Notes: generated by a model not told the origin, from the sequence alone. A stretch of 64,000 nucleotides of DNA from Octopus sinensis (GCF_006345805.1 NC_043006.1:94302001-94366000), one strand, 5' to 3'. Shown: positions 11,898-56,852, counted from the first letter of the stretch. Numbers and translations are program-made.

Positions 11898-12026
11898 ATT
11901 TCTGTTGAAGTGCGTAGGCTCGAAACGTAAAAGACTTTCTCACTTCACGAGCGTTAAACTAATACATCCGTTTGTTGTCTACACACCTATCTTCGTCTTT
12001 TGTTTTGTTTTGTAAATTCCAACTAA

Positions 12027-12027
<1 letters not shown>
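11898..12027 (+). mobile_element. Short Penelope-LTR-like repeat (family E) with variant hammerhead motif CUGUUGA
   Basis: ttt CTGTTGA a gtgc gtag gctc GAAA cg TA aaag, followed by the body shared with 52245-52430 and 52882-52970. Confidence 0.7.
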
Positions 12028-12109
<82 letters not shown>

Positions 12110-12135
12110 CATAGATAGATAGATAGATAGATAGT

Positions 12136-12168
<33 letters not shown>

Positions 12169-12477
12169 GAGATGAGATGAGAGGACGAATGCGTAGGGTG
12201 ATCTATGCTAACATACACCGATAAATGCAAACACGCACCCCTGCACACACGCACACAGGCGCGAGTATAGAAAGAGAAAGGTAGAGATACCAGACAAGAA
12301 AAAAATAGAGAATTTAAGAAAAGTAATACACACACACAAACGCACACAAAATGATTGACAGACAAGTATCTGGCTAGAAAAATTTTCATAATACTCAATT
12401 GCATCTTTGTAATGTTGTTCATATTGCACCCGTGTGGCGAATAAAGGAATTACTACTACTACTACTACTACTACTGA

Positions 12478-12700
12478 AAAGGCAGTGAGCGAGCTGGCAG
12501 AATTGTTAGCACGCTGGACAAAATGCTAAGCAGCGTTTCGTCCGTCTTTCATGTTCTGAGCTCAAATTCAGAAGAGGTTGACTTTGCCTTTCACCCTTTC
12601 GGGGTGGATAAAAAAGTACCAGTTGAATACTGGGTCCATTTAATCGACTTACCTACTTCCCCGAAATTGCTGGCCTTGTGCCAAAATGTGAAATCATTTA

Positions 12701-12737
<37 letters not shown>

Positions 12738-13155
12738 AAACGCGGTGAACTGGCAGAATCGTTAGGAGGTCGGTGGCGTTCGTTCTGGCTCTTTACATTC
12801 TGAGTTCAAATCCTGCTGTGACCAACTTTATCCTTAAACCTTTCCGGGTCAATAAGCTAAGGTACCATTTAAGTCTGAGGGTCGATGTAATTGGCTTGCC
12901 CTTTTCTCTCAGAATTGCTGGTCTTATGCCAAAATTATTAGTATCATTGCTTCTAATTTAGGCACAAAACCAATAATATTTAGTGGAAGAGAAACGTGAA
13001 TCCCATTATTTATCGAAAACACCAATTCCATTTCTTGTCTGGCGCTTTATTTTATTCAACCAAGAGGAACGAAAGGCAAAATTGAAATCAGCGGGATTTG
13101 AACTCGAAACATTAAAAGACGGAAGAAATACGCTCTGATGATTCCACCAACCTCT
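12478..13155. mobile_element. SINE family B cluster: two + copies (12478-12695, 12738-12940) and one - copy (12945-13155)
   Basis: Family B head, core and tail motifs, flanked or separated by (ACT)n/(ATT)n. Confidence 0.85.
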
Positions 13156-14642
13156 ATTTGTCGCCATTTTTATTATTCATGGCTGGATTCTTTTCTTAAA
13201 ACAAAAATTAGGTATATATATTGGAAAACGTTAAAATGTTGGTAATTATATCACATGAGAGCCATTTGAGTCATTTTTAGACGACAGGAAAGCTATTATA
13301 TTCACTTTTTCTATTCTTACTCATCTAAATATTTAAGGTTAACAAACGCTCAGTAGAGTATCATGGTTTTGAGCGCCCTGTGTCGAAACCAAATTAGCTA
13401 TCCACTTCCTTAAACGTAATACATACCTTTAACTACAGGATGCAAACGTATATAAAATGGCCGCCCTGTGCGGTTCGCTTACACTGTTCACACGGCGCCA
13501 TGCGCCTGCGAATGCTACGTGAGAATATACAGACTATCTTAAGATCCTGTAAATATTCGCACAACTGTATATGTAGATACATACACAGAAACACACAAGC
13601 ACATACAGGCACACAAACACACATATAAATGGATAAAATATCTCCCGCCCCAAGCTTTTCATTCGATCACATGCAATTTTATTTTAGCTTTCTTCTTTAC
13701 AGAGATAAATGCGTAAATAGGTCTTCAGCATTCTCTCTCTCTCTCTCTCTCGATTGTCTTCAACTGTTTATATTTGTAGGGGATTCATCTTTATAACCTG
13801 TCCCTGGAAAACGTCAATCACCTATCGAGGCGCTGTATTACTATTATGAACTCGCTGGAAATAAATCGCCAATGGATTTTGTTCCGGAAGCACACAAGAT
13901 AATGAATACATAAGAAAACCGAGAATATTGCAGCCAGTGTGGGCTTTTTCTGAGACGAATGCCCAAGATACTGATGCCAAACGAAAAATAAATTAAAAAC
14001 GATAAAAAAAATGCAATGAAAGACATCCCAAAGTCCTTTAATAAGACTGATTAGTGAACAAAAAATGTTTAAAAGTAATTTTTCTTCACTGGATTTATTC
14101 CGTCATTTATTCTATGTACTACTGACCACTGACTACTGATTGTAGCATCCTTTTTTCGCCTTCATTTTTGGCTTTTTTCTTTTCTTTCTGTCTTTCACAA
14201 CTTCCAATTTATTTATACAGTATCTCCAGAAAACGTTTATCTCAAACAAAGAATTCTATCCAATACGGCAAAATTTTTGCTCTTCTACGTGGCAAATTAA
14301 TGTATCTCATAATTGTTTTAACTTATTTTATACTAAATATCTACGAATGCAGGCCAATGCTAGACCCGTCAGAGCTGTTATTGCTGACTTCAGTTAATAT
14401 TTTTAACTTTTAAAACCGGAATAAATTGCTCCATTGTGAATTGGAAAATATTCGGACAGAACCTTTCATAGGAGAATCTATTAATTTGCTACCACCAAGA
14501 AACAATTCTCTCCCTCCCTCTCTCTCTTGTCACACATTGGTGAGATACAGACGCAGACACACACACACACACACACACGCACGCACACACACACACAGAG
14601 AGATAACATACATACACACATATATATATATATATATACACG

Positions 14643-14673
<31 letters not shown>

Positions 14674-14825
14674 TCAGACACACATGTACATCTGAGTATA
14701 TATACACACACACCCACATACATATAGTCAATCCAAACAAGAAGAAGCAAGAAAAACCTCAACGCGAGGACGTGGTACAAGTACTGTGTTATTGGACGCT
14801 CAGGAAAGGAAAGAAAGGAGAGAGG

Positions 14826-14860
14826 ATTTCACGTTTCGAGCGGAGCTCTTCATCAGAAAT
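14826..14860 (-). ncRNA. Minimal type-I hammerhead ribozyme motif (cleavage triplet reads GUG, likely inactive) in a short element ~14715-14925
   Basis: auuu CUGAUGA A GAGC ucc GCUC GAAA cg UG aaau; stems I and II pair perfectly. Confidence 0.65.
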
Positions 14861-14964
14861 ATAGAAAAAGTCCAAAGAAGGGAAGAAGGAGAAAGAAAAT
14901 CGCCAACGATACACACACGGTCACACAGACACACACACACATACATATATATACACACACATTT

Positions 14965-16081
14965 ATATATATAATATGTGTGTGTGTGTAGAGAGAGAGA
15001 GAGATAGGTACATATGTACGTTATATATATATATATATATAGCTAAATATATATATATATATATATAGGCACATGCCTACTTACACACATACATTCCTAA
15101 TTAACACAGATATCGCTAGCTAGCGAATCTTCAAACTTGAAAAACAGCTTTTTTTTTCCCAAAACCGAAACAAAATATAACTCAATGAATAAATAAACAG
15201 GCAACAGACCCCAAAATCACTACAGAAAACTAAGAAGTAATAAAGGAAGGGATCAAGCATAAATAGATAACAAAACTGAATAAGAACCGTAAATCAAGAA
15301 TGATCAGAACAAGAACGACAAAGTACATCGTCCGAACACCAGCAATAACATAAATACAATCGTACTAACACTTTCCACATTCAAGAAAGCTAAAAAAAAT
15401 ATATAAAAAAAAAGAACAATAATGAGAGAGCGCAGTGTGTCGTTGTTGATCTGAACCGAAGAAACATAAGAATATGGTTCGTTCTTTTCAGAACAGAAAG
15501 AAATAGAAATGATAAGATCTGGATTGAATTGGAGAAATATCTTTCAAATGTATAAACAATCAGAAAATTACAAACATACATACATAGATAATATATATAT
15601 ATATATATATATAATATATATATATTATATATAATATATATATATATATATACGTATATATACATATATATACATATATATATATTATATATATATATAT
15701 TATATATATATATATATATATACTATTATATGTATGTATATACATACATACTTACATATATGTGTGTACGGTGAGTGTCTGTGTATTCTGTATGCTCAAT
15801 AATTACGTCAAGAAAAATTATAAGGGAATAAAAGAAAGAAAAAGGCAATTATGTCAAAGAACGAGAAACGGTGTAGAATAAAATTAAGAGCTTCTTCCGA
15901 ATTGAATTTTGAGATGAGGTGATTAAATGATGTAAACGGCAGAACAATGGAATTCTTCATCGTTGATGATTGTGATAAGGAGGGGTTTGTTAGCAGACGT
16001 TCCATTGACGCTTCGTTTGCTCAGAGCCGCACGAAGAAATTGGTCACAATAAGTGATAAGCAGAAGCAATACTATACCTAT

Positions 16082-16124
<43 letters not shown>

Positions 16125-16216
16125 CACACATATATTATATATAATATATATATATATCTATATATATATATATAATATATATATTATATATATAATATAT
16201 ATATATATAATATATA

Positions 16217-16268
<52 letters not shown>

Positions 16269-16435
16269 ACATATATATATATATATATATATATAGATAT
16301 AAATATATACATAGATACATAGATATATATACATACATATATATATATATATGCATGCATACACATACATATATATGTACCTATATACATAGATATAAGC
16401 ATATATGTATGTATATACATATATATATGTATATA

Positions 16436-16478
<43 letters not shown>

Positions 16479-16489
16479 TACATATGTAC

Positions 16490-16542
<53 letters not shown>

Positions 16543-17052
16543 TGCCTACTTACACACATACATCCTAATTAACACAGATATCGCTAGCGAATCGTCAAAC
16601 TTGAAAAACAGCATTTTTTTCCCAAAACCGAAACAAAATAAATAAATGAATAAATAAACAAGGCAACAGACCCCAAAATTCATACAGAAAACTAAGAAGT
16701 AATAAAGGAAAGGGATCAAGCATAAATAGATAACAAAACTGAAATAAGAACAATAAATCAAGAATGATCAGAACAAGAACGACAAAGTAACATCGTAGAA
16801 CACCAGCAATAACCATAAATACAATCGTACTAACACTTTCCACATTCAAGAAAGCTAAAAAAAAATAATAAAAAAAAAGAACAATAATGAGAGAGCGCAG
16901 TGTCGTTGTTGATCTGAACCGAAGAAACATAAGAATATGGTTCGTTTCTTTTCAGAACAGAAAGAAATAGAAATGATAAGATCTGGATTGAACATGGAGA
17001 AATATCTTTCAAATGTATAAACAATCAGAAAATTACAAACATACATACATAG

Positions 17053-17091
<39 letters not shown>

Positions 17092-17550
17092 CGTATATAT
17101 ATATATATAACATATATATACATATATATATAGATATATATATTATATATATATAATATATATTATATATATATAATATATATATATATGTATATACATA
17201 CATACTTACATATATGTGTGTACGTGAGTGTCTGTGTATTCTGTATGCTCAATAATTACGTCAGAAAAATATAAGGGAATAAAGAAAGAAAAAGGCAATT
17301 ATGTCAAAGAACATAGAAACGGTTTGTAGAATAAAATTAAGAGCTTCTTCCGAATTGAATTTTGAGATGAGGTGATAAAATGATGTATGTAAACGCACAG
17401 AACAATGGAAATTTCTTCATCGTTGATGATTGTGATAGGAGCGGGGTTTGTTAGCAGACGTTCCATTGACGCTTCGTTTGCTCAGAGCCGCACGAAGAAC
17501 ATTGGTCAAATAAGTGATAAGCAGAAGCAATACTATACATATATATATAT

Positions 17551-17585
<35 letters not shown>

Positions 17586-17618
17586 ATATATAAAATTATA
17601 TATATCTATAATACATAA

Positions 17619-17712
<94 letters not shown>

Positions 17713-17880
17713 TATATATATATAGTAATATATATACATATTATATATATATACATAGATATATATACATACATATATTTATATATGCATGCATACACAT
17801 ACATATATATGTACCTATATACATAGATATAAGCATATATGTATGTATATACATATATATATGTATATATGTTGTGTGTG
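14965..17880 (+). repeat. ~1.45-kb tandem duplication (copy 1 ~14965-16430, copy 2 ~16430-17880)
   Basis: Unique blocks repeated, e.g. 15100-15590 vs 16560-17055 and 15750-16080 vs 17200-17540; differences are largely single-base indels. Confidence 0.95.
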
Positions 17881-17974
17881 TGATAGTTTTATATATATAT
17901 ATATATTATATATATATATATATATATAATATACATATAATATATTATATATATATAATGTTATATAAAGTGTG

Positions 17975-18016
<42 letters not shown>

Positions 18017-18723
18017 GTATGTCTGTGTGTGTGTATCCTTGCATGCATATATATGAGTCTGTTTTTGTGCGCGTACGAACATACATAAACATACATGTGT
18101 CTATGTGTATGTTGTGTCTACATACATGCATATATGCACGTTTATGTGTGTTAATGCTTTTTGTGTATATATGTGTATGTAAATATGTACGCTATGCATG
18201 CGCACGTGTTTGTGTGTGTGTGTGTATGTACCTACAGGTAAAAATGCATTAGGAAGATACTACAGGTTGGAAATATCAGTGTAAAAACAAAAGCGAACGC
18301 ACACACGCGCATAAACACATTTAGATTTCCCCCTCTTTACTGCGGTATTTGAACTTTAAAATACCCTTATTAACACAGAATGAAGTCGGAGTTCAGCCGA
18401 GATCTATGCAAATATGTAACTTATAAACGTTTGCGACATATACAAATTGTTATTGACATATTAACCAATGAGCTAAGTACAGCTCTTGATTGTTGTTCTT
18501 GTTGTTAGTAGGATGTACATACATATATATACATCATGAATGCATGCACACACTCACCCCCCCCCCACACACACATACACGGACGTATGTAATTGAATAA
18601 AATTCGAGTAAAAACATCTATGCAAAGCTCATCCACAGCTATTAGCTGCCTGCTGTTATCATATAGTGGAAACGCACCCACTAATGGATATTAAGCAGGA
18701 ATTCCATAGTTCGTAGAGTCTAT

Positions 18724-19093
18724 TGTGGCATTCTATCGTTTACGACGATGAGGGTTCCATTTGATCCGATCAACGGAACAGCCTGCTCGTGAAATTAACG
18801 TGCAAGTGGCTGAGCACTGCACAGACACGTGTACCCTTAACGTAGTTCTCGGGGAGATTCAGCGTGACACAGAATGTGACAAGGCCGGCCCCTTGAAATA
18901 CAGGTACAACAGAAACACGAAGAAAGAGTCAGAAAAAGAGTGCAGCAGGGTTCGCCACCACCCACTGCCGGAGCGTCGTGGAGCTTTAACTGTTTTCGTT
19001 CTATAAACACTCACATCGCCCGGTCTGGGAATCGAAGCCGCGATCCAACGATCGCGAGTCCGCTGCCCTAATCACTGGGCCATTGCGCCTCCA
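18724..19093 (-). mobile_element. Full-length SINE family C with 12-bp TSD
   Basis: Head gtggaggcgcaatggcccagtg.ttagggcagcggactcgcg..gcttcgattcccagaccggg; flanks cgtagagtctat (18712-18723) and cgtagagcctat (19094-19105). Confidence 0.9.
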
Positions 19094-19342
19094 CGTAGAG
19101 CCTATATAAATAGGTAAACGATAGAGAATGAAATTATCGACATTTTCTATTTAAAAATCACTATAATTGTTTCGACACATTATCCACCCATAGTACATTG
19201 GTGAAGTATTGTGTAATCATCCATCTAAGGTGCAAAATGCACCTCCTCAGTTGAATGTTTAAATAAATCATTCCTTAGATCCTATTGTCATTTCATTCAG
19301 CATGAGAAAGCATATCAAAATTATGTATCATTTTCCAGCAAT

Positions 19343-19442
19343 NNNNNNNNNNNNNNNNNNNNNNNNNNNNNNNNNNNNNNNNNNNNNNNNNNNNNNNNNN
19401 NNNNNNNNNNNNNNNNNNNNNNNNNNNNNNNNNNNNNNNNNN
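19343..19442. other. Assembly gap (100 N)
   Basis: Run of 100 N, a typical fixed-size scaffolding gap. Confidence 1.
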
Positions 19443-20016: not shown

Positions 20017-20048
<32 letters not shown>

Positions 20049-20285: not shown

Positions 20286-20424
20286 GTGTGTGTGTGTGTA
20301 CGGCTAGGAGAGACGGATGGTTAGCGCTTGCCTTCACAAGGACCGAATAGATATCATTTAATCTTTCTCACATAATCATTGTCATTGCTCTCTACTTCAG
20401 AGCAACACTTCTTTTCTATTTTAT

Positions 20425-21862: not shown

Positions 21863-21949
<87 letters not shown>

Positions 21950-22155
21950 AATAAAATAAAACATATGCATATATACATACATATATGTACGTACCTACCT
22001 CTACATGTATATATACATGCATATATGGGTACAGGACACCAAAAAAACGTCGAACACGATGAGAAACGAAAACATAAACACAAAACCAAGGAAATGGACA
22101 TTTTTCTGAAGTAACGAAAAAAATAGAGTACAGGACATACAATACAAGGAAAATA
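21950..22155 (-). mobile_element. Family D repeat fragment (related to 27731-28800)
   Basis: acaggacacca..aacgtcgaacacgatgagaaacgaaaacataaa is the inverse of 27900-28025 and matches 28630-28700. Confidence 0.75.
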
Positions 22156-24587: not shown

Positions 24588-25333
24588 CAGTGGTTTTCAA
24601 CCGCGGTTCATATGAGCCCCGGCGTCCATACAACATTTTGGGGCCCACCTAAGCAAACTAGAAAGTTGGGTCCACAATACTATTTCAACAAGGGTCTGTG
24701 ATAAAATCTTGCTATAGAGGTATTTTTTGCAAGTAAATAGCTTGGTCCCTTTCTCTAACATTTTACAAGTGAATGTGCGATGAGCAAAATAGTAATTTTG
24801 TAGCTGTGTGGTAAGTAACATGCTTCCTAACCACATGGTTCTGGGTTCAGTCCCACTGCGTGTGACCTTGGACAACTGTTTTCTACTAACGCTCGTGTAG
24901 TGAAAAAGTTTTTAACGTTTCGAGCATACGCTCTTCCACAAAAAGGAACACAGAAAGAAACAAGGAGAGGAAATAAAGAATGTGTAATGGCTAGCGATCT
25001 ATAATGGCGAATATATAATGTGTGTGTCTGTGTTTGTGTTTGTCCCTCCACAATCGTTTGACAACCGATGCTGGTGTATTTACGTCCCCGTAACTTAGCG
25101 GTTCGGCAAAAGAGACCGATAGAATAAGTACTAGGCTTACAAAGAATAAGTCCTGGGGTCGATTTGTTCGACTAAAGGCGGTGTTCCAGCATGGCCGCAG
25201 TCAAATGACTGAAACAAATAAAAGAATAAAAGAAAATAACATCAGTTTTTAAAGACAGAATGGCTATGGAGGTCCCCAAGAATAAATCAGTAACCGTAAG
25301 AATTCATAAGTTGAAAATGGTTGAGAACTACTG
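24588..25333. mobile_element. hAT (Charlie-like) MITE carrying a nested SINE A (24800-25235), which itself carries a hammerhead-family fragment (24890-25010)
   Basis: TIRs cagtggttttcaacc / ggttgagaactactg; the SINE A head and tail are separated by acgtttcgagcatacgctcttccaca. Confidence 0.75.
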
Positions 25334-27730: not shown

Positions 27731-28021
27731 TTGGAGGATAAGAAACGAACGACGCGAGGCGCTCAGTCATATAATAACAATTTAACAAATAAATTTTATT
27801 TCATTCATTTTGCAGGAAGGATTGCTTCGACCGGATCGTGTTCTGCCCTTACCTTCGAAACACGCATTGAGTCGAACCAGGGTCGGCTGATGAAGGGGAA
27901 TATTCCTTGTATTGTTTGCCTTGTACTCTGTTTTTTTCGTTGTTAAAAAAAGTCCGTTTCCTTGTTTGTTTTTATGTTTTCGTTTCTCGTTGTGTTCTAC
28001 GTTTATTTGTGGTGTCCTGTA

Positions 28022-28271: not shown

Positions 28272-28801
28272 TGTATGTATACATGTAGATGTAGGTATGT
28301 ACATATATGTATATATGTATGCATATGTTTTATTTGTTAAATTGTTATATTATATATATATATATATATATTATTAAAAAAAAGGAGATGTCGAACACGA
28401 GTGGTGATATATAAAAAAGGAAATGAAGAAAATGCTGACAAATAATTGAAGTATTAGTAATTTAATTAGGTGAAAGTTCTTTTTACCGGTTGCGCATTTG
28501 TTATGCTTATATATTTATATAACTTACTTGGAAAAGGATGCGTGGCGTTCGATCATATAATGATATAAATAATATATAAACATATACATATATACATACC
28601 TACATACATATGTATATATACACATGCATATATGAGTACAGGACATAAAAAAAAAAACGTTGAACACAATGAGAAACGAAAACATAAAAACAAAAACATA
28701 GAAACGACCTTTTTTCGAACAAAACAAAAAACAGAAACGAGACAAAAAGAACATTTCCTTCTTCAGTTGTCCCTATTTCATTTACTCCACGTTCGAAGAC
28801 A

Positions 28802-28803: not shown

Positions 28804-28860
<57 letters not shown>

Positions 28861-28865
<5 letters not shown>

Positions 28866-29262
28866 CGCAGGAGGAGTGGCTGTGTGGTAAGTAGCTGGTT
28901 TACCAGCCACATGGTTGTTCCGGGTTCTGTCCCACTGCGTGGCACCTTGGACAAGTGTCTTCTACTATAGCCTAGGGCCGACCAAAGCCTTGTGAGTGGA
29001 TTTGGTAGACGGAAACTGAAAAGATGCCCGTCGTATATATCTATATATATGCGTGTGTGTGTTTGTCCCCGTAGCATTGCTTGACAACCGATGCTGGTGT
29101 GTTTATGTCCCCGTTACTTAGCGGTTCGGCAAAAGAGACCGATAGAATAAGTACTGGGCTTACAAAAAGAATATGTCCCGGGGCCGAGTTGCTCGACTAA
29201 AGGCGGTGCTCCAGCATGGCCGCAGTCAAATGACTGAAACAAGTAAAAGAGTAAAGAGTAAA
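28861..29262 (+). mobile_element. Full-length SINE family A
   Basis: tRNA-like head, internal TA/TG microsatellite, tail cttgacaaccgatgctggtg..gcggttcggcaaaagagaccgatagaataagtac..cagcatggccgcagtcaaatgactgaaacaagtaaaagag. Confidence 0.9.
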
Positions 29263-29264
29263 AG

Positions 29265-29309
<45 letters not shown>

Positions 29310-35414: not shown

Positions 35415-35723
35415 GTAATACACAGATAACTCCTTAGACGGTTTTTATAACCTCTAGTTAATCTTACCTGTACATACATAGATAAATATATTAATCAATG
35501 AAATTCCAACCTAATCTGATTTTCACGTTTTATTATTTACAATTTTACAATATTATAATAATTCAGTTAAGAGAAGGATAAGAAAATATTAGATTTATAA
35601 GCCCTAAAATCCATTTTCCGAGTTCGATTCCAAGCAGTGACCTGAATAATAATAATAATAATGATGATAATAATAATAACAACAACAACATACATAAGAT
35701 ATCCAGGTTCGAAATTTTCCCAA

Positions 35724-35769
35724 AACACCTGATGAAGGCTGGAAGGTATATCAGCCGAAACGTTGTGTT
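35724..35769 (+). ncRNA. Intact minimal type-I hammerhead ribozyme (family F element ~35700-35820 next to (TAA)n)
   Basis: aacac CUGAUGA A GGCUG gaagguauau CAGCC GAAA cg UU guguu; 5-bp stems I and II; palindromic AACGUU in place of stem III. Confidence 0.8.
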
Positions 35770-35829
35770 ACCAACAAACAAGATGAGGACAAATATCCGT
35801 CAAATGTAAATAATGTATTATAATAATTC

Positions 35830-36030
35830 TTTCAACTGGAATCGCAGGGGAAGGGATTAAGTCGATTACATCGACTCTAGTCCTTATCTGGTATTTATTT
35901 AATCGACCCCCGAAAGGATGAAAAGTAAAGTCGACCTCGGCGGAATTTTAACTCAGAACCTAGCAACAGACGAAATACCGCTAAGCGTTTCGCCCGGCAA
36001 GCTAACGAATCTGCCAGCTCGCCGCCTTAC
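35830..36030 (-). mobile_element. SINE family B
   Basis: Reverse complement of family B, head ending ctgccagctcgccgcctt. Confidence 0.9.
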
Positions 36031-36077
36031 AATATTATAATAATATTATTATTATATTATCTTTATTTATTGTGATA

Positions 36078-36115
36078 AAACTAGTACTTTCATGCGATAC
36101 GCAATCATCAGGTTT
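36078..36115 (-). ncRNA. Minimal hammerhead ribozyme island between (ATT)n tracts
   Basis: aaac CUGAUGA u UGCG uau CGCA u GAAA guac UA guuu; palindromic AGUACU. Confidence 0.7.
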
Positions 36116-36117
36116 AT

Positions 36118-39223: not shown

Positions 39224-39890
39224 GTATATATATGCATAAGTATATATATGTATACGTATACATATGTATATATGTATATATTCACTCTTTTTTTCACTCT
39301 TTTACTTGTTTCAGTCATTTGACTGTGGCCATGCTGGAGCAGCGCCTTTAGTCGAGCAAATCGACCCCAGGACTTATTCTTTGTAAGCCTAGTACTTATT
39401 CTATCGGTCTCTTTTGCCGAACCGCTAAGTTGCGGGGACGTAAACACTCCAGCATCGGTTGTCAAGCGATGCTGGGAGGACAAATACTGACACAGAAACA
39501 TATATACACACATGCATATATATATATACATATATACGACGGGCTTCTTTCAGTTTCCGTCTACTAAATCCACTCACAAGGCTTTGGTTTGCCCGAGACT
39601 ATAGTAGAAGACACTTTCCCACGTTGCCATGTTTGTTCCCCCATCACCACTTGACAACCGGCATTGGTGTGTTTACATCCCCGTAATTTAGCGGCTCGGC
39701 AAAAGAGCCCGATAGAATAAGTACCAGGCTTAAAAATAAGCCCTGGGGTCAATTCATCCAACAAAAAATTCAAGGCGGTGCCCCAGCATGACTGAAACAG
39801 ATAAAAGATAAAAGAAAAGATAAGCTTTAACAACAAAATCTTATATGGATCCCCGCCCCCAAGGGGCCATACTTGGTTGGAGAACCGCCG
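38773..39890. mobile_element. hAT MITE interrupted by a nested antiparallel SINE A pair (38976-39820)
   Basis: TIRs cagtcgttctcaacc / ggttggagaaccgccg; body similar to 62404-62501 and 34085-34233; + head 38976-39145, - copy 39290-39615, + tail 39625-39820. Confidence 0.75.
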
Positions 39891-43425: not shown

Positions 43426-44150
43426 AAAAAAAAATTTACGGGTCATTGCGGAAGTTTCCGTAAATGTTTCACTTGCCATTCACGGTCGAATGCTTTATTG
43501 GTGACGAATGGGATAAAATTGCTTTCACAAAATTTCTTCGAGGCAAAGAAGCCCACTGATCTGTGACGGGGGTGGGGCTCAACCGCGCATCTGGCTTTGC
43601 GGGAACCCTATCCAGTTTGTGACTCATTAAAGGTGAGAAAAAAGAATTACACGCTCGTACACGCACACACACGCATATATTATATAGATATATATATATA
43701 TAATATATATATATTATAATATATATATATTATTATATGTATATATGTATGTATGTATGTATGATGTATGTATATGCACATATACATGCACACACATACA
43801 TACACATACATACATACATACATACAAACAAACATACATACATACATACATATATATGTATATTATACATATACCGCTTGATAATCTCAATGGAGGCAAT
43901 GCAAGCGGAAACTAGAGGAACATAATTAATAACCACACTCAAAATCAAATATATATATATATCCTTCTACATTTATAAAACGGATATAAAATTCCAAATA
44001 TATAATTATAAAAATACATACAAATAGATAAATGTCGATGTGATACATAAAACGCAGTTATAATACATTGGTGTAATAAAAATTTGAGATGATGAAACAT
44101 TATAAGGACGTACAAAAATACCACGAAAATGATACAATTTTTTTAAATTC

Positions 44151-44232
44151 CATCTACAGGCCGTTTCAGAGACGTGCCAAGTAACATGATATATTTCATA
44201 TTTTTAAACCTGACCCTCCTCTCATCAGGATG
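44151..44232 (-). ncRNA. Hammerhead-like motif with ~55-nt stem-II insertion
   Basis: cauc CUGAUGA gagga..(internal auga/ucau hairpin)..gucucu GAAA c ggccu GUA gaug; stem I cauc/gaug perfect. Confidence 0.55.
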
Positions 44233-44340
44233 TTTTCACACAATACAGACAAAACAAATACAAAACTGACAATATCTGCGGGTATTGTTAACACTAGCAA
44301 TCTCAAAATTGCTAGTGTTTATATAAAATAAAAAGCAGTG

Positions 44341-44371: not shown

Positions 44372-44504
44372 GTCTAGACTTCGTAAATATATATATATAT
44401 ATTTTCAGTGAGGTTTATTCACTGATCACCAAAATTAGAAATATTAAATTTCTAAATATCTCATAGAGATATATGCGGTGGTGGAGAGCGATAGATGGTT
44501 GCGT

Positions 44505-44848
44505 GGCATCTGGGCAAGTGTCTTCTGCTATAGCCCCGGGCCGACCAATGCCTTGTGAGTGGATTGGTAGACGGAAACTGAAAGAAGCCTGTCGTATATA
44601 GTAATATATGTGTGTGTGTGTGTATATTTGGTGTGTCTGTGTTGTCCCCCCTAGCATTGCTTGACAAACCGATGCCGGTTTGTTTACGTCCCGTAACTTA
44701 GCGGCTCGGCAAAAGAGACCGATAGGAATAAGTACTGGGCTTACAAAGAATAAGTCCCGGGGTCGATTGCTCGACTAAAGGCGGTCTGCTCCAGCATGGC
44801 CGCAGTCAGATGACTGAAAAAGTAAAAGAGAAAAAGAGGAAAAGAGAA
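44505..44848 (+). mobile_element. 5'-truncated SINE family A
   Basis: gggcaagtgtcttctgctatagcc..to cagatgactgaaa. Confidence 0.85.
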
Positions 44849-46019: not shown

Positions 46020-46948
46020 TAGATAGATAGATAGGTAGATAGATAGATACACAGGTAGGTAGGTAGGTAAATAGATTGATAGACAGATAGATAGATGCAC
46101 ACACATATCCACTCATATTTACATACTTACACTTATAACACCCACTTCTCCCCCTGTCCATCTCTCGTGGGCTGATTGGCGGACTGACTGACGGACGATA
46201 GATAGATAGATAGATAGATAGATAGAGGGAATGGGAGGGAGAGAAAGAGAGACAAGAGGTGGTAGTAGAAAGATATAGGGCTGAAAAAGAAGGGATAAAA
46301 AAATTGATGCGAAAGACTTCTTTCGATGTAGGTGTAGAGTAAAAAAAAAAAGATAAGATAAAATAATGGGCGGAGGCCGGGGTGGGGTATTGTGATAACG
46401 GAGAACATAAGATAAGGAGAATGTTTGGTGGAATGGATGGGGGAGGGCCTGATAAAAGGGTCTGATGAAAGGGTCTGATAATAAATAAGTCACAGCAAAG
46501 CGAGACCATGAATTCATATTATATTTAGTCGGGCGACATGATACCATAGATGGTGTTTCAAGCAGTTTTAGTATGGGGGCGGAGCAGGGCAGGGTAGGGC
46601 AAAGCAGACCAGGGTAGGGCAGCCTTGGGAAGTGCAGGGCTTGAATGAAGTTGTGATGGTGGAGCTGCTCGAATTGGTATGGAATTTGGTATAGGAGGAG
46701 AGATAATGGACAAAGCTACATCGCTAGATGGCTTTGCCGGTGGCTTTCGGTAATTACGCATACATACACACTCACACACACCACATACACACACACACAC
46801 GCACACGCACACACGTAAGAACACACCACCCTAATGAAGCTTCTAAGCTGAAGTGGAAACAGCACGGACTTTGTCTTCTTACCCTCTTACAGGATTTAAG
46901 TAAGATTATACAAATATGTCCGACTGTTTAAATTAATTCTATTTATTT

Positions 46949-47024
46949 ATGCAGCTGAAGATAGCTCTGCATTTAAATTGCATTGTTCAATTAAATGGTG
47001 TCGCTTGAAACGGACGTACTGCAT
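46949..47024 (+). ncRNA. Type-I hammerhead ribozyme with extended stem II
   Basis: augcag CUGAAGA u AGC..CAUUUAA..AUUG..CAAU/UAAAUG..GCU u GAAA cggacg UA cugcau; 6-bp perfect stem I; GUA triplet ends at 47018. Confidence 0.7.
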
Positions 47025-47257
47025 CACCTCTGGATATCTTGTTGCTTATTTTGATATATATATTATATATATACATAAATTAGAGACAAGAAACCTTTTA
47101 GCCGGTACCCCTACTAAACTTGCAGATAGTACACACGGTTTGTACTCTATGGCTCTCATGCACGACTGGTGTAAACAGACGAAGCCATAATAAAAAATCT
47201 CATAAAGAAAACTGCAAAATGAATCAGACCAAACGACAAATTCTGTCATGAATAATA

Positions 47258-48824: not shown

Positions 48825-48862
<38 letters not shown>

Positions 48863-49099: not shown

Positions 49100-49470
49100 T
49101 AGAAGCTACATGGTTTTCTGTTTAGTATTATTGTGTGATACCTTGGGCAAGTGTTTTCTACTCTGGCTCCGAGCCAACTAATGATTGTGAATGAATTTAG
49201 TAGACGGAAACTGTACGGAAGCCCGTCGTATATTTGTGTGTGTGTCTATATGTTTATCATTGAGTCTGTGCTTGTTTCCTACTCCGTTTGACAACCGGTA
49301 ATGTTTCTGTTTAAGTCCCCAAAACTTAGCGGTTCGGCAAAAGAACCCAATAGAACAAACACGAAACTTTAACAGATAAGTACCGGGGTTTCCGATCAGC
49401 TCGGTTAAACCATACCAAGCTGGTGCCCCAGCATGACCACAGTTCAGTGCCTGCAACTGGTAAAAGACTC
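49100..49470 (+). mobile_element. Diverged SINE family A
   Basis: ccttgggcaagtgttttctact..agacggaaactg..acttagcggttcggcaaaaga..cagcatgaccacag. Confidence 0.75.
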
Positions 49471-49986
49471 AATCTAATAAATATCTCGTCTGACGAAACT
49501 ATATCTTGGAAAATAAATGTTCGGATTCATCCAACGCCTTCCATTGTTTCTTTTCATTTAATTTCACTCGGGAAGCTCGGTTCGACCCCAGGCTATGGAA
49601 AACATACGGTGAAGGTATGGCGGAATCTAATCAAACCATGTTTATCGCGAAACTAATTTCTTAAAAGCACAGCAAGGCGCCCAAACATATTAAGACAACG
49701 AAATATATACAAATACCTAGAGGGACATCAACGTGCTTTTATATATACATATTTTGTATATATTCCTATTTATTGAACTTTCAGTGTTCTTTTTATTTAG
49801 CCAGCTGATTATTGGAAAGATTAGCAGGGTTTATCTGCACAAATTCGATGATTGACTCCATGGCTACGGGAAGAATTGTATACGAGGCAGAATAATCAAC
49901 CGATGTCGTAGTGAGTTAAGTAGACGGAGACTTGAATTACCACCCACCAGTTGTGATATGAAACACCTGCAAGACCTTACTGACCT

Positions 49987-50022
<36 letters not shown>

Positions 50023-50283
50023 AGTCAACTCGTGACCGAGAAAATGTTTCGAGAATCCAAGAAGTTCCTGCTCATGAATTTGTTCTGAGTGGATAAAATG
50101 TTGCCCCAGCGGTGATCCCATTTTTCAGCGCAATCAGTCATAACATCAGTGACACAATAGAGGTTGAGACAACCAGATACTATCTGCACTCAAGAATTAT
50201 TTTCTACTAGAAGGAAGTTCTGACACAAACTAGGGGTCCTTCGCTCCCATTGGTTCATATGCTAGTTAAACCTTTCTGTAGTT

Positions 50284-50397
50284 CATTATTTACATTATTT
50301 ACATTTCACGGATATTTGTCCTCATCTTGTTTGTTGTTAACACAACGTTTCGGCTGATATACCCTCCAGCCTTCATCAGGTGTCTTGGGGAAAATTC

Positions 50398-50446
<49 letters not shown>

Positions 50447-50631
50447 CAACAACAACATCGAAAAATACCATAGGAATGTGAACCCAGGTTCGAAATTTCC
50501 CCAAGACACCTGATCAAGGCTGGAGGGTTTATCAGCCGAAACGTTGTGTTAACAACAAACAAGATGAGGACAAATGTCCGTCAAATGTAAATAAGGTAAA
50601 TAATTCCCCATCTCTTAAATATAGAACTGTA
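50284..50631. mobile_element. Complete family F insertion: inverted pair of hammerhead-bearing repeats around (TAA)n, 12-bp TSD
   Basis: TSD ctttctgtagtt at 50272-50283 and 50632-50643; intact HHR on - strand 50339-50384; HHR with CUGAUCA mutation on + strand 50505-50550. Confidence 0.85.
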
Positions 50632-50703
50632 CTTTCTGTAGTTGTGGTAATTGTTGAATATATAAACTGATTGGCTGATTGTTTCTCTCGGATATGTCAA
50701 ATT

Positions 50704-50763
50704 GCTGTAAACGCCTCTGATGAGAATCCAATAAGATTCGAAAATGTATTAAGCTTGTTCAGC
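50704..50763 (+). ncRNA. Hammerhead motif (family G)
   Basis: gcug..gccu CUGAUGA GAAUC caauaa GAUUC GAAA augua UU aagc..cagc; perfect 5-bp stem II. Confidence 0.65.
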
Positions 50764-50881
50764 CTATTTTCCCTTTATAAACAGATAAATTAGCCCTATA
50801 TATAGGTATTATACCCGTTATACACACACACGCATGCACTCACACACATACATACATACATATATACATACATACATACAC

Positions 50882-50916
<35 letters not shown>

Positions 50917-52196
50917 GACATATATTATGATTTCACCAAGGCAACGTTAAAACTCGAGATACCGATGGTTTAGAGCAAAACGTTAGGCGATTATGGAGTG
51001 GAATATTACTTAATGAATGGCAGGGGAACAGGAATCACATAATCATTTTAATGGCTCCGAAGGGGCATTAAGATGTTGCACTAACACTCAGTTTTGAGTG
51101 CATACTTCTTATAGCACAGACAACTGTAAGCTAATGAAGGTGATTAGTGGCTCCCGTTCACTTCTTAATTAATTTACTAATTAATGTTTACATATATATG
51201 CGTATATGTGTGTGTTACCTCACATAGTTGCACATTACATCTACATGTGTGCAAATCCCTCTCTCTTTCCCTCTCCCCCTCTCATATATATATATGTATA
51301 AACTTGCAAGATATATTTCATATCATTAGTGTGTTAATTACGAGAAAATATACGCTAATACAGGGTCTCTCCATCAATTATTTAGTATAGATTTGCATTA
51401 ATGCCCCCATTTCTCTCTCTCTCTCTCTCCCCTCTCATTTTCTATTATTTAAATATCTAATAAACCTCACGAGCGTTAATATATAAAGGCTAACTAGAAT
51501 TGTCTCAATTAATTTTCACTTTCCTTGTCGTATTTTTCATTTTCTTTCCGTTTATGCAATTTTTTTGTTTTAATTTTTGATTTGGAATCATTTAATTTTT
51601 TTAAATATTTTTATTTCTTTTCTCATTTTTTCCACTTCAAAGTAAAGTTGCTTGATTTGTAGTGATTTTATTGTTGTTGTTGCTACTGCTACCGCTATTG
51701 TCGTTGTTGTTGTTGCTGCTGTCAAGTAATTGAATTTATAATGTCAAGGGACGAAATATAATAAAACATTTTAATAATGTATTATCTCATTTTAAAAAAA
51801 ATATTTGTTTATTTTTCTTCGTTCTTGTCTGTGTGGTATTTCACGAGAGAATACGCCTATCAACTACCCCGACCCTTATACATTTTATTTACCTTTTTAA
51901 AAGCACCTCGTAATTATATCATTTTCTTTCTTTACTTTTTAATTATTTTTTTAAATTTACTTTTCTAATTACTCTTTCACTGGTTTAAATCAGTCATTAG
52001 ACAGCCGTCATGATGGGACACCGCCTCCATGAGTCTTAGTCAAATTATATCGACTGAACCACCTTTCCAGTAAAATTTTTTATCGATCGATCTCGGAAGT
52101 GAAGGAATCGATCACGGCGTAAAGCGATATAACAGAAAAGAAGCGAAACACTACAAATGTTTCCGGCCATTTTCCTAACATAACAGAACCACTGAC

Positions 52197-52240
<44 letters not shown>

Positions 52241-52326
52241 CAAATTTACAGAAAACAAAAGATGAAGACAAGTGAGAGAACAACAAGCAAGTGTATTAGT
52301 TTGATGCTTGGGAAGAATGGAAAAGT

Positions 52327-52362
52327 CTTTGACGTTTCGAGCCGACACTCTTCAACAGAAAG
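52327..52362 (-). ncRNA. Variant-core hammerhead (CUGUUGA) in family E element 52245-52430
   Basis: cuuu CUGUUGA A GAGU gucg GCUC GAAA cg UC aaag; both stems paired; GUC triplet. Confidence 0.65.
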
Positions 52363-53206
52363 GGATAAGAGGTGAAAAAGTCGAAAGGAATAAAACGGAG
52401 AGAAAAAATGCGTAGGGATTAACGGTTTATATATGTATATATATAAACACATACATGCACACATACATAAGTACATACATACACACATTCTAAAAGGTCA
52501 ATTTTAGCTTAAATGATACCAGAACTATAGTTATATCGTATTTTAAAACAACCTCTACTATCGTGTACCCTAAGGATTTGTGAGCCCTTTCCTAGAATAT
52601 ACTTTAAGAACAACTATCTAATAGCTGAATCCTCAGTTCGCTTCACCCACCCGCATGGCTAAAACCTTGAACAAAACTGCATAGGAACGTGTAGTTTTGA
52701 TGAATATATACAGCGACTAACCAACTAAATTCGCATCAAAGGATATTAGGACACTTGTCCAATAGAAACACGTGTCGGATTGGAATCTGATGTGAATTTA
52801 ATGAGAATAATACTACAATTAACAGATTTTGAAGATGAAATATTTCTCCATTCTTCTTTATGATGCCTTGATTATATATATAGGCTCGAAACGTTAAAGA
52901 CTTTCTCACTTCCCGGGCGTTAAACTAATACATTTATTGTTGTTTACACACCCGTCTTCGTCTTTTGTGTGTGTATATATATATATATAGAAAAAATATA
53001 TATAAGTCGAAACAATTTGTTGGCCTTTTATGATTTTTATAATTATTTATGTTATATAATATAATGTTATGTTATATTCATAGTATCTAATGTAATATTG
53101 TAATATAAGCAAATTTTGGGTTTGTGAATAATATATCTCTATATTTAATTATAAATATATATAATATATATATATATATAATATATATATATATTATATA
53201 TATAAA

Positions 53207-53640
53207 CATATGGTATAATTATAAACAGGGCATATGTTAGCCATTTCTCCGCAAACGGGAAAAAAATGAAGACCTTTAATCGATTTCCGAAACTTATCGG
53301 GTTTTCATCAGAGGCGCCCACGTCATTCTGACAGCCTCCACAGGACAGGCAGCTGAACTGTTTATATAATCAGCAAATGCAGCAGTTACTCCATGAAGGA
53401 GTCCCTAACGTGCATACCGAAAGTGTTCAACACTCTATAAATATCAGCGGCCTGTCAACGGGGACCTTAGTCAACACAGTGTCAGGGGTATGATATGGTA
53501 AATATCTGATATATGATATAATTATAAACTGGTCAAATTTTAGCCATTTCTCCGCAGATTGAAAAGAAATCGATTTTCGAACCTTATTGAGTTCTCATCA
53601 GAGGCGTCCACACTATTTCGACAGTCTCCAGAGAAACATA
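53207..53640 (-). repeat. Diverged ~300-bp tandem dimer, each unit carrying a hammerhead motif (53273-53317; 53566-53607)
   Basis: ttagccatttctccgca at 53237 and 53540; tcatcagaggcg at 53305 and 53595; second unit reads CUGAUGA GAAC ucaauaag GUUC GAAA aucgau UU. Confidence 0.7.
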
Positions 53641-53759
53641 TGTGTGTGTGTGTGTATACATACATACATACATACATACATACATACATACATACATACA
53701 TACATACATACATGTACATACGTATATCCTATCTCAGTGGACTGAGCCTGTTTTTTTCT

Positions 53760-53992
53760 TATTTCCTTACTAACCACAAGGGGCTAAACACAGAGAGGAC
53801 AAACATTGACAGACAAACAGATTAAGTCGATTATATCGACCCCAGTGCGTAACTGGTACTTATTTAATCGACCCCGAAAGGATGAAAGGTAAAGTCGACC
53901 TCGGCGGAATTTGAACTCAGAACGTAACGGCAGACGAAATACTGCTAAGCATTTCACCCGGCGTGCTAACGTTTCTGCCAGCTCGTCGCCTT
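53760..53992 (-). mobile_element. Young long-tail SINE family B
   Basis: Near-consensus reverse complement, including tail atttccttactaaccacaaggggctaaacacagag. Confidence 0.9.
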
Positions 53993-55069
53993 TCCTGTTC
54001 TTTTCTAATGCTGTTAAGAAAACGTTCATGTAGTTGTTAGTCGTCCAAGGAACCAAACTTCATCGTCATTAACAAAGCCTTTGCATTTGTTTGTTGACAT
54101 TCCAGTTCACAGTTATATGTAAGCGTGGGTCCAAGCTTTGCTCCTTAGAATTTTTCCTGGCCTTTAGTGATAGCTGTTATAGTCCTAGTTTTATAAACAG
54201 ACTGGATAGGCACATCTGGAGGGACTAAGCAACAACTCCCGGCAGCTCTTTAGTTGTGCAGAGACGTTTAGTTGTGAGATAATAACAACACCTCCATAGA
54301 TAATGGGAAGACAAAAATATGTATGAAAATGTATGTATATAAAAGTGTGCACCTGTATGTTTGTATATGTTTTGTGGTTGTGTGTGTTTCTGCAAATTTA
54401 CGACACTTTTTAAATGTGTACAAGTGTGTGTGTGTGTGTGTGTGTGAATATTCTCTGCCTCTCTTTATCTATCTGTCTCTCTCCCACACACTCTTTCTCT
54501 GTTTCTCTCGCTCTCTTCTCTTTTTCTGTCTCTATATATTCACATACGCACACACACATATATATAATATTTTATATACTTCGTATGTATGTGTACATGT
54601 GAATGTATAACGGACACACACCTACAGATGCACCCGCATATGAGCACACAGATATCGATAAGTAGGTAGACAGTGAGAGACCGATAAATAAATAACATAG
54701 ATATTATATGATATTTTTTTTCTTCTTCAAGTGGTTGTCTAGTTGTGGAGTGCCTTTAAGCCATCGTCTCTATAAAAGCACTTACCGACTCGAGGGTTGA
54801 TAAAAAAGTAAAAATAAATTAAAAAATACAGATAAGGTCAAGGAAATAAAACAAGAAACATACAATAAATACACAGTGAAAAAGGCCAGGACAATCAATT
54901 AACCACCTTTTTCAAGTGATGATAACGTTACAGACATGAGATGCAAGAAGACTTTTACCTCCACTGTTTAGTTATTAATAAGCGAATATGATAGCAACCA
55001 CAGTGTCAACAACAAAAGCAAGAAAAGGAGTAGAAACAGCAACAGCATTATATCATTAATTGATTGATG

Positions 55070-55945
55070 AAGGCGCCGAGCTGGAAGAAACGTTAGCACG
55101 CCGGGTGAAATGCTTAGCGGTGTTTCGTCTGCCGCTACGTTCTGAGTTCAAATCCCGCCGAGGTTGACTTTGCGTTTCACCCTTTCGGGGTCGATTAAAT
55201 AAGTACCAGTTACGCACTGGGGTTGATATAATCGACTTAATCCATTTGTCTGTCCTTGTGTGTCCCCTCTATGTTTAGCCCCTTGTGGGCAATAAAGAAA
55301 TAAGAAACGTTAGCACGCCGGGCGAAAAGCTTTGCGGTGTGTCGTCTCCCGCTACGTTCTGAGTTCAAATTCCGCCGAGGTCGACTTTGCGTTTACATCT
55401 TTTCTGCGTCAATAAACTAAGTATCAGTGAAACACTGGGGTCAATGTAATCGAATTAATGCTCTCCCTCAAAATTACAGGGCCTTACGCCTTCAGTAGAA
55501 AGGATTATATTATTAACGGATTGATAAAGAGCGACGAGCTGGCAGAAACGTTGGCAAGCCGAGCGAAAAGCTTTGCGGTGTGTCGTCTCCTGCTACGTTC
55601 TGAGTTCAAATTCCACCGAGGTCGACTTTGCCTTTCATCGTTTCGAGGTCGATTAAATAAGTACCAGTTACGCACTAGAGTCGATGTAATCGACTTAATC
55701 CCCTCCCGAAAGCTGCCTTTGTGGCAAAAATTTCAAATCATTATTAATGGATTGATGAATTCACAAAATCGGTAGAGTATCGTACAAAATGCCTTGTTGT
55801 GATATCAAATCCCCCTTTTACTCTTTGCAATCTGAGTTCAAATCCCGCCAAGGTTAACTTTGCCTTTCATTATTTCGAGGTGTTAATAAAATTAAGTGCC
55901 AGTTAATTTGTAGGGTCGGTCGATGGTAATCGCTAAATCCCTCTT
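55070..55945 (+). mobile_element. Head-to-tail array of four SINE B copies
   Basis: Copies at ~55070, 55303, 55528 and 55755, each with ttctgagttcaaat..gactttgc.tttca. Confidence 0.9.
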
Positions 55946-56284
55946 TGCCTGTGTGCGGGTGCGAGTTCGTGAATGTGTGGATGTTCTGATTTTATTTTAC
56001 AATTTTTTCACCGAGCGAAAGAGCTTGTTTCTCACCTAGAAATTCTTTCATCGTAGCTTATGCAATGCCAACTGAGTTTACGCCTGCCTGTGTGTCTGTC
56101 GGTCTATCTGTTTGTCTGTCTGTCTGTATGTCTGTATGTATGTATGTATGTATATGCGTATATATATATACATTTGTATATATAATATATATATATGTAT
56201 GTATATATATATATATATATGTATGTAATGCGTATATATATACATTGCAATATGACCATTCCGAATATAACAATATATATATAT

Positions 56285-56346
<62 letters not shown>

Positions 56347-56852
56347 TATATATATATGTAAATATATATATATGTGCGTATGTATATATATATATATATT
56401 TACATATATATGCATGATCGTATGTATACACACACATATGGATATATACGTATATATTTGTGTCTGTACGTATGTGTGTGTGTTTGTGTGTGTGGTGTGT
56501 ATGGGTGGGTGTGTGTTTGTTTGTTTGTATGTCTGCTCAGCTACATATACATGCATGAACGTATGCATATGTACATGTATATGTATTTGATGCATATATG
56601 CATGTACGTATGTGCGCCTATGTTTGCGTGAGTAGTGTTGTGCGTTCCTGAGCAATTATATTAGTTAAATAGCTGTCAATTTAAAATGACATTATTCTAT
56701 TTCTGTGACACCGAAATCGCTTCTTTCATGTACCTCATGGGGTTTGTTAGCTCAATCACTTTTATTAAAGGATCATCTGCAGTCCAAACTGCAGCTGCAC
56801 CTGATGAATAGTCTTATAATTGGGGCCAAGACCTTTTGAGACGATTACGAAG

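Follow-up and report, generated by a model that had tools for sequence, protein, structure and literature searches.

A window of 64,000 nucleotides (nt) of Octopus sinensis DNA, that is, the whole stretch that was analysed (~37% G+C, microsatellite-rich, within a 2.72-Gb genome), carries a varied set of hammerhead ribozyme motifs. These are very probably the hammerhead-bearing 3' ends, or pseudo-long terminal repeats (pLTRs), of several families of the retrotransposons known as Penelope-like elements (PLEs). Upstream, families A, B, E and H continue into the coding sequence of PLEs, and their short copies are therefore 5'-truncated pLTR stubs. Reverse transcriptase (RT) and GIY-YIG endonuclease sequences precede the motif in long copies of A and B (in the latter, PLE coding signal was seen at loci L279, L243 and L266), and GIY-YIG alone in E and H. 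Copies share 3' ends ~100 nt beyond the hammerhead and have ragged 5' ends. By their motifs, A would be of Penelope/Poseidon type, B of Neptune type and E of Hydra type. Overall, this is mostly the ordinary, large footprint of PLEs, from which two features stand out, a high-copy variant of the hammerhead core (family B) and a composite pLTR (family A).

Hammerhead motifs in the window and in the genome

The original prediction, made from the window sequence alone, had listed about 15 motifs from at least six families. The boxes and stems it described were located where it had placed them, and genome searches assigned 14 of the 15 sites to eight genome-wide repeat families with a type I fold (A, B, B2, C, D, E, F and H, B and B2 being related). 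The fifteenth, 34657, has only three weak partial relatives, without helix I or palindrome, and no supporting family was found for it or for 56801, 58180, 13728 and 38048. Hammerhead positions are given here in the customary numbering, and tRNA box positions are those generally known. CUGANGA and GAAA boxes with a U16.1-H17 site are the common state of families A, C, D, E, F and H; helices I and II are paired, and the helix III palindrome differs from family to family.

A type I descriptor was run on both strands, calling for an intact core, helices I and II of at least 4 pairs (1 mismatch allowed) and a helix III that either has a loop of at most 4 nt or is palindromic. It matched the window four times, against a mean of 0.025 and a maximum of 1 in 40 block-wise dinucleotide shuffles, i.e. 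the motif frequency is not equal to that of shuffled sequence. The matches, given by the position of C3, are:

35729, plus strand: type I descriptor match
36111, minus strand: type I descriptor match
44228, minus strand: type I descriptor match
50379, minus strand: type I descriptor match

An earlier version of the descriptor gave five window matches against a mean of 0.12 (60 shuffles), and a looser setting, which carries no shuffle control, added 46955 on the plus strand. The CUGANGA box by itself is barely enriched (31 in the window, against a shuffle mean of 21.2 and a maximum of 30). In unselected DNA (100 evenly spaced 10-kb stretches, 999,800 bases) there were 10 descriptor matches against a shuffle mean of 1.0 (range 0-4, eight shuffles), which gives ~9 net matches per Mb and, by extrapolation, ~25,000 genome-wide. 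The window is ~6 times richer than this average (P ~0.004 for at least four matches in 64 kb), a comparison coloured by the fact that it was selected for its motifs. These net matches, together with the 12,349 exact family B copies that the descriptor misses (see below), bear out the large genomic population that had been predicted. Further hammerhead families were seen in the unselected DNA (L088:7997- and 8494-, L069:1139+, L062, L081, L102, L105, L116, L309, L316 and L330), with palindromes as long as 12 nt and, in one case, a tandem pair spaced by 497 nt. An Rfam scan of the window yielded no hammerhead among the matches listed (150 of 431), which are microsatellite-driven microRNA matches and one U6atac match, and Rfam gave 0 matches on L042:1450-1800.

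Ten of the sites had been described as intact and five as degenerate, and neither class survives whole. Among the former, five pass the descriptor (46949 only in its looser form), and five are broken or non-canonical: 50505 has G8C, 14826 has G17, 53273 has lost A13, 53566 is without the 3' strand of helix I, and helices III and I are decayed in 50704. Among the latter, 11899, 24905 and 52327 belong to one family in which the supposed defect, U6, is the normal state, 19158 is indeed a decayed copy of a real family, and 34657 is the unsupported site. The cut positions predicted at 35764 and 47018 coincide with H17. The proposed association with microsatellites holds in part: (TA)n-type runs, with a background of 0.20, lie at the 3' ends of B (26/30), B2 (20/24), C (17/24) and D (19/19) copies, but not of A (7/30), whose (AAT)n is internal to the element.

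Family A and its tRNA-like segment

The family A features of the window are:

35567..35829, plus strand: 3' stub with an open reading frame (ORF)-end remnant (35567-35610), the 3' half of a tRNA-like segment from 35616, (AAT)n and an intact minimal hammerhead
C3 at 35729, plus strand: hammerhead of this stub, helix III ACGU, predicted cut after 35764
50285..50397, minus strand: short inverted copy whose hammerhead is intact (C3 50379, cut predicted at 50344) and which faces the next copy head-to-head
50439..50630, plus strand: copy whose core has G8C (C3 50510) and whose 3' tail is complete

A family H tail fragment (35500-35560, minus strand) lies directly upstream of the first of these copies and inverted to it.

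A genome search with family A returned 3919 first-look candidates, the best 40 places being 93-100% identical. The order within the family is coding sequence, tRNA-like segment, (AAT)n, hammerhead, and the parts hold together whichever of them is used to pick copies: a hammerhead lies within 420 nt of the tRNA-like segment in 27 of 33 segment copies, the segment lies upstream in 16 of 30 loci picked by the hammerhead, and copies picked by the ORF end (a query with 2325 first-look candidates) have the segment in 26/30 and the hammerhead in 21/30 cases. Two loci (L221 and L222) share 2.4 kb that comprise RT frames with a DKG motif, a GIY-YIG-type end and, on the 5' side, an inverted hammerhead copy. 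Pfam recognised RVT_1 (E 1.3e-7) in one of three family A segments, and atlas neighbours at 0.97 carry HTH_animal/GIY-YIG. No linker zinc finger was seen, as in Penelope/Poseidon elements by the definition of PMC8557442. Of 28 loci, 13 have an inverted partner within 700 nt, and none has one on the same strand; core and stems are kept in only 5 of 34 copies that were not chosen by their hammerhead.

The head of the tRNA-like segment scores z 2.9-7.7 over shuffles against 20 tRNA genes of the genome, and has A and B boxes at tRNA spacing. Those 20 genes cover six amino-acid types, and the comparison singled out no isotype; ARAGORN reported no tRNA gene in 30 family A loci, and Rfam was likewise silent on the segment. 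Alignments of head-bearing copies start between -10 and +8 of the tRNA-like +1 in 46 of 58 cases (16 of 25 in loci chosen by hammerhead alone), with 2 of the others extending far upstream and 10 starting internally. Either transcripts made by RNA polymerase III (Pol III) and then copied by the protein of the PLE, or an RT stop at a small hairpin located there, would fit this pile-up of 5' ends. The segment might be a tRNA-like promoter captured in the pLTR, making part of family A a PLE-mobilised, hammerhead-bearing short interspersed element (SINE), a possibility that we regard as doubtful because ORF-bearing copies are also plentiful (the 2325 candidates above); the head is internal to coding copies too. 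That the head is a separate SINE with a targeted (AAT)n tail was considered and dropped, because 27/33 heads reach a hammerhead and 26/30 ORF ends reach a head. At several loci (L036, L039, L055, L058 and others), head-to-head inversions join at the small hairpin just before the tRNA-like start, which suggests that fold-back priming may occur at the end of the complementary DNA.

Family B, its U6 core and its sister B2

The copies of these two families in the window are:

11896..12025, plus strand: family B stub, U6 core CUGUUGA, C3 11902, A17, private helix II change
24887..25017, minus strand: family B stub (hammerhead at 24946) with a U6 core, N7 = G and U17, a shortened tail, and C3U and helix II changes of its own
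52237..52429, minus strand: family B stub of an older C17 subfamily, U6 core, C3 52358
52881..52968, plus strand: family B stub truncated within helix II, missing from the original prediction
14718..14924, minus strand: family B2, sister of B, canonical A6, C3 14856, G17 at 14830, which is the normal state of its subfamily

The normal core of family B is CUGUNGA, i.e. A6U relative to the canonical CUGANGA. An exact 31-base pattern found 12,349 genomic copies with U6 and 426 without it (70 C, 22 A and 8 G among the first 100 listed), reversed controls giving 0. Across the subfamilies N7 is any of the four bases and H17 is A, U or C, with G17 at background level (82 of 12,431 exact-pattern copies). 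Selection by the tail only, in 1.1 Mb, returned 13 copies, 10 of which keep the box, with U6 in 10/10. When 151 B-like copies were clustered on their tails, 96 fell into six clusters of at least four and 55 were left out. Among the four U6 clusters, 2 of 36 motif columns vary (N7 and H17) against 65 of 125 flank columns (29/41 upstream, 36/84 in the tail), and in a tree of 35 rows built on the flanks the groups with U6 and with A6 separate, with 100/100 at the split. The youngest subfamily has a mean identity of 97.9% (10 copies). Public contigs that carry the labels of four organisms have their listed motif variants at N7 and H17, with none at position 6, and in one public contig run the motif alone aligns, at 80%; because the variant table is visibly pruned, this is soft support for the constancy of the motif. 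The U6 pattern had 0 matches in metagenome contigs.

In 7/40 and 1/23 family B loci the upstream DNA has endonuclease sequence in the same orientation, at 46-100% identity, and in L279 RT and then endonuclease stand ahead of a U6 motif. The endonuclease has a CX4CX2C linker and the two CCHH cysteines inside GIY-YIG, which is the Neptune pattern as described in PMC8557442. PF01541 matched it below the cut-off (E 3e-4), Pfam found nothing with the in-frame L279 query, and atlas neighbours stand at 0.96. Nine spaced family B pairs or neighbourhoods held no pLTR-ORF-pLTR unit. At L265 and L266, family B copies with A6 have an endonuclease frame upstream, and could be reverted copies or small A6 sublineages.

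Family B2 has the same helices II and III as B, and differs in loop II and in having A6. In helix I the outer pair covaries (one pair), being C-G throughout B but A-U, G-C or G-U among B2 copies, and 96.1% of cells are paired in 18 hand-picked B/B2 rows. In the subfamily found in the window, G17 is present in 23 of 25 clustered copies and in 172 exact copies; another B2 subfamily has H17. G17 strongly impairs minimal hammerheads and is tolerated by those with tertiary stabilisation (PMC3884650). In four loci (L253, L255, L289 and L271), B and B2 stubs have piled up head-to-tail at shared (TA)n sites, so that copies of different subfamilies are neighbours on one strand and could form mixed dimers.

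For the U6 motif itself, a slow, protein-assisted ribozyme is on balance the probable identity; a structure that does not cut and is retained because it binds protein or dimerises is a possible but weaker candidate, and a mere historical accident looks improbable. The fuller proposal, that a recently amplifying Neptune-type lineage uses a U6 hammerhead kept under selection as a slow ribozyme rescued by its own protein, is put forward tentatively, at somewhat less than an even chance. It has to face a serious competitor, itself short of an even chance, in which the master copy lost A6 and the core is dead, the rest persisting because it binds protein or dimerises, or through inertia, with cleavage unneeded for insertion. 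Changes at position 6 slow hammerheads and are not always lethal, as seen with A6C (PMC3088659, PMC7151607); the rate reported for A6C is nonetheless <0.1 per min (PMC3088659), with a >10,000-fold loss in Mg2+ relative to Mn2+ in one construct (PMC7151607), and hammerhead mutants of the anole Poseidon element left its insertion in vitro unaffected (PMC11167929), all of which suits a dead core. What argues for kept catalysis is that variation among U6 subfamilies falls at exactly N7 and H17, the two columns that a working hammerhead leaves free, and that H17 is A, U or C with G at background only.

This argument is weakened in several ways. Most family B copies had been selected through the motif, and 55 of the 151 were excluded as members of small clusters; this exaggerates the invariance of the motif, and the Fisher P (1e-9) cannot be read as a true probability. 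Loop II is also invariant, which catalysis does not need, and the amplification of the G17 subfamily of B2 favours a non-cutting role; together with the dispensability seen in vitro, these points argue against kept catalysis. Two structural ideas were also considered. Pairing of U6 with A15.1, locking the monomer as a rod, fails as a general explanation, the rod being predicted only for N7 = U (probability 0.02-0.78 in five copies, against at most 0.07 in five copies of other subfamilies). A heterodimer in which A6/G17 (B2) and U6/H17 (B) make up for each other's defects would have a helix I of three A-U pairs and a mismatch, and B is ~70-fold commoner than G17.

Families C, D, E, F and H

The remaining families are represented in the window by the following copies:

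53205..53638, minus strand: family C head-to-tail dimer, C3 53601 and 53311 (spacing 290), both hammerheads broken
50651..50765, plus strand: family C fragment, C3 50717, helices III and I decayed
46838..47070, plus strand: family D stub, C3 46955, U.U opening the long helix II, 8-nt helix III mismatched here at its centre, cut predicted after 47018
44056..44273, minus strand: family E (putative Hydra-type PLE) stub, passing the descriptor, C3 44228, predicted cut at 44155
36027..36117, minus strand: family H stub, helix III AGUACU, U.U at 10.1-11.1, C3 36111, predicted cut at 36082
19120..19300, minus strand: decayed family F copy, C3 19250, from a family with a long helix II and a ACAAUUGU helix III

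Family C is a unit of ~290 bp, ORF-less, with a long bulged helix I, a CAAUAA loop II and an 8-nt palindrome. Its boxes are exact in 11 of 25 copies, and all three window copies are broken. A same-strand partner 256-424 nt away was found in the window and in 4 of 24 other loci, an inverted partner in none, and 25 loci gave no PLE protein match. Family C has the sequence features that define a non-LTR retrozyme and is likely a non-autonomous user of the PLE machinery. Same-strand tandem partners occur in 1 of 30 B, 1 of 19 D, 0 of 18 E and 0 of 19 H loci, in addition to the null count for A given above.

The frame upstream of family E (L350, L352) has CxCX5C, CxxC and CxH and no CCHH pair, which fits the description of Hydra in PMC8557442. 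Family H has exact boxes in 13 of 19 copies and GIY-YIG upstream in 1 of 20 loci (L384). The U.U that opens helix II in D and H is a known tolerated mismatch (PMC3088659). Most of the 16 relatives of family F keep a helix I of 4-5 bp and the 8-nt palindrome, which the window copy has lost.

Mechanism and alternative explanations

A plausible course of events can be sketched from these data and from published work, in which the protein of the anole Poseidon element cleaves AT-rich DNA and initiates reverse transcription within its RNA (PMC11167929). The octopus element protein would likewise nick AT-rich DNA and prime on its own RNA; reverse transcription would start ~100 bases downstream of the hammerhead and stop early, leaving short stubs. 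Each insertion would carry a hammerhead because the hammerhead lies near the presumed priming site, and truncation would strip the rest of the element. The palindromic helix III would pair two RNAs, so that cleavage would need a dimer and probably a protein; solo genomic stubs would be mostly silent passengers, decaying in place. Family C may use the same machinery as a non-autonomous tandem unit, and the masters of family B would have fixed A6U and gone on amplifying, with all other core bases kept. In one in vitro system the cut is protein-dependent and insertion does without the hammerhead (PMC11167929).

Several results weigh against the view that all these motifs are PLE 3' ends. No full-length copy with two direct pLTRs was found at six long A loci and in nine B neighbourhoods. 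Pfam found nothing on two further RT stretches or on the endonuclease half of family A, a search against solved structures gave 0 matches, and the clades were assigned by motifs read by eye and not by an RT tree. No ORF is linked to B2 in 24 loci, to D (1.2 kb of shared upstream sequence holds no frame) or to F, which is seen only as ~180-bp pieces, and no ORF lies within 1.5 kb upstream of families C, D and B2. The double-hammerhead fold is computed to be weaker than two monomers (A, -23.5 vs -26.4; B, -14.9 vs -21.6 kcal/mol), a modelled result that is in line with a need for protein.

The main competitor, which the original prediction had favoured, takes most of the motifs for retrozymes of a non-autonomous kind, or for SINE-like ribozyme elements, copied as short units. 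Family C is just such a tandem unit, short copies predominate in every family, and the pile-up of family A starts near the tRNA-like +1 is what it would predict; yet A, B, E and H extend upstream into PLE coding sequence, same-strand tandems are rare outside C and the ORF end of A has thousands of candidates, so that this explanation is unlikely for the set as a whole and only C looks both ORF-less and tandem. That intact copies cut host transcripts crossing them, as had also been suggested, is very improbable. Four or five window copies do have an intact core and stems, and the extrapolated motifs are many, but few family A copies not picked by the hammerhead keep these parts, the sole close same-strand pair in the window (family C) is broken, single minimal hammerheads gave no cleavage in vitro (PMC4209133), and the anole element needed its protein and left no read ends at the site (PMC11167929). 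No host exon was identified among the long ORFs of the window, beyond which no further search was made. Finally, chance matches in AT-rich, microsatellite-rich DNA might be invoked from the near-background frequency of the CUGANGA box and from 34657 and 56801, two sites without a supported family; this can be practically dismissed, and is refuted for 14 of the 15 sites, given the descriptor excess and the tens to thousands of fold-keeping relatives that each of the eight families has. Truncated PLE 3' ends are the best account of the collection.

Other features of the window

A common repeat (six or seven relatives in the examined loci) occurs at 27887 on the plus strand, at 28766 on the minus strand and also at 21895-22154. 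It combines a conserved box, CUGAWGA, with a hairpin and what may be a helix I, but has no GAAA at the expected place and a CGAAA ~50 nt further, which recalls the 'half core' motifs of Naiad PLEs (PMC8557442). At 56801 on the plus strand, CUGAUGA and a hairpin are present, with GAGACG replacing GAAACG, and no relative was seen in the examined loci. The U6atac match (20294-20424, plus strand) scores 37.1 bits against a gathering score of 33, and is perhaps a decayed copy. A tandem duplication of ~1.6 kb (14940-16534 and 16400-17957, 88.5% identity) is mostly microsatellite. Two very abundant SINE-like repeat families, each with at least 10 window copies, are unrelated to the hammerheads:

4932-5453, 53755-53993, 55044-55758 and 56943-57898: SINE-like repeat family 1, examples
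28860-29309, 39285-39629 and 44500-44844: SINE-like repeat family 2, examples

Significance and comparison with known systems

Families B and B2 amount to a natural experiment, with near-identical stems around A6/H17, A6/G17 and U6/H17 cores, all of which have been amplified. The outcome matters in either direction: (i) cutting by U6 would mean that the catalytic consensus, as taught, is too strict and that animal ribozymes are undercounted, and (ii) a lack of cutting would mean that the motif is held fixed by a second role, not a catalytic one, of sufficient strength. Should the proposal hold, U6-type cores escape every search based on CUGANGA, and animal genomes may hide large populations of them. 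No A6U hammerhead was found in the literature searched, where A6U turned up only for glmS and twister; Lünse 2017 and Repbase, either of which may list U6, lie outside this coverage, as do two supplements (file 1 of PMC4209133 and that of the retrozyme preprint). The same literature held no tRNA-bearing pLTR.

In most respects the octopus motifs conform to what is known of animal hammerheads, which number in the thousands per genome, minimal in form and in many families each (PMC4209133), with >6000 in 16 families in a coral (PMC7229834), so that the predicted link of minimal type I hammerheads to PLEs and retrozymes is supported. Like the pLTR hammerheads of Cervera and De la Pena 2014 (PMC4209133), they are of type I with a short helix I, an extra base after A9, G10.1-C11.1 and a palindromic helix III, and like those PLEs they occur as thousands of solo truncated copies in many families, with close inverted pairs. 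Such minimal hammerheads showed no cleavage as monomers and weak cleavage as dimers (PMC4209133), and the anole Poseidon hammerhead cuts only with protein, its mutants inserting normally (PMC11167929). The differences lie in the core and in the pLTR: in Fig. S3 of PMC4209133, 56/56 representatives keep A6 and a non-G cut site, and the descriptor used there fixes A6, whereas U6 is found in family B and G17 in a subfamily of B2, and in the part of that source covered here the sole core variant is U3-A8 and a tRNA-like segment in the pLTR is not mentioned.

The endonuclease-bearing PLEs of Craig et al. 2021 (PMC8557442) likewise share a C-terminal GIY-YIG, (TA)n targeting and inverted 5' copies with those described here, and their clades offer counterparts for B (Neptune: CX2-5CxxC linker and CCHH), for A (no linker finger) and for E (CxCX5C, no CCHH), an assignment that is motif-based only. 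Hammerheads were sought in that work by a fixed cuganga string, by which family B cannot be found. Family C, with its ~290-bp non-coding unit, resembles animal non-LTR retrozymes (PMC7229834; bioRxiv 10.64898/2026.07.22.740005) in having a type I hammerhead with a long helix I, in occurring as monomers and dimers and in being likely PLE-dependent; it was seen as dimers without long arrays, and the other families are stubs of coding elements. Schistosoma Sm-alpha/Sj-alpha (PMC6765202) combine, like short family A copies, a Pol III-type promoter and a hammerhead in a short retroposon. The family A hammerhead is, in contrast, minimal and palindromic, its pairs are inverted and not tandem, and the tRNA-like segment sits in the 3' untranslated region of a coding PLE. 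The closest parallel to family B is the A6C hammerhead of Bcep176 (PMC3088659, PMC7151607), another natural change at core position 6. That one, with C6, is known from one phage sequence; it is slow when Mg2+ is the metal ion, and Mn2+ rescues it. Family B, as known from its sequence, has U6 fixed in >12,000 copies of an animal retroelement lineage.

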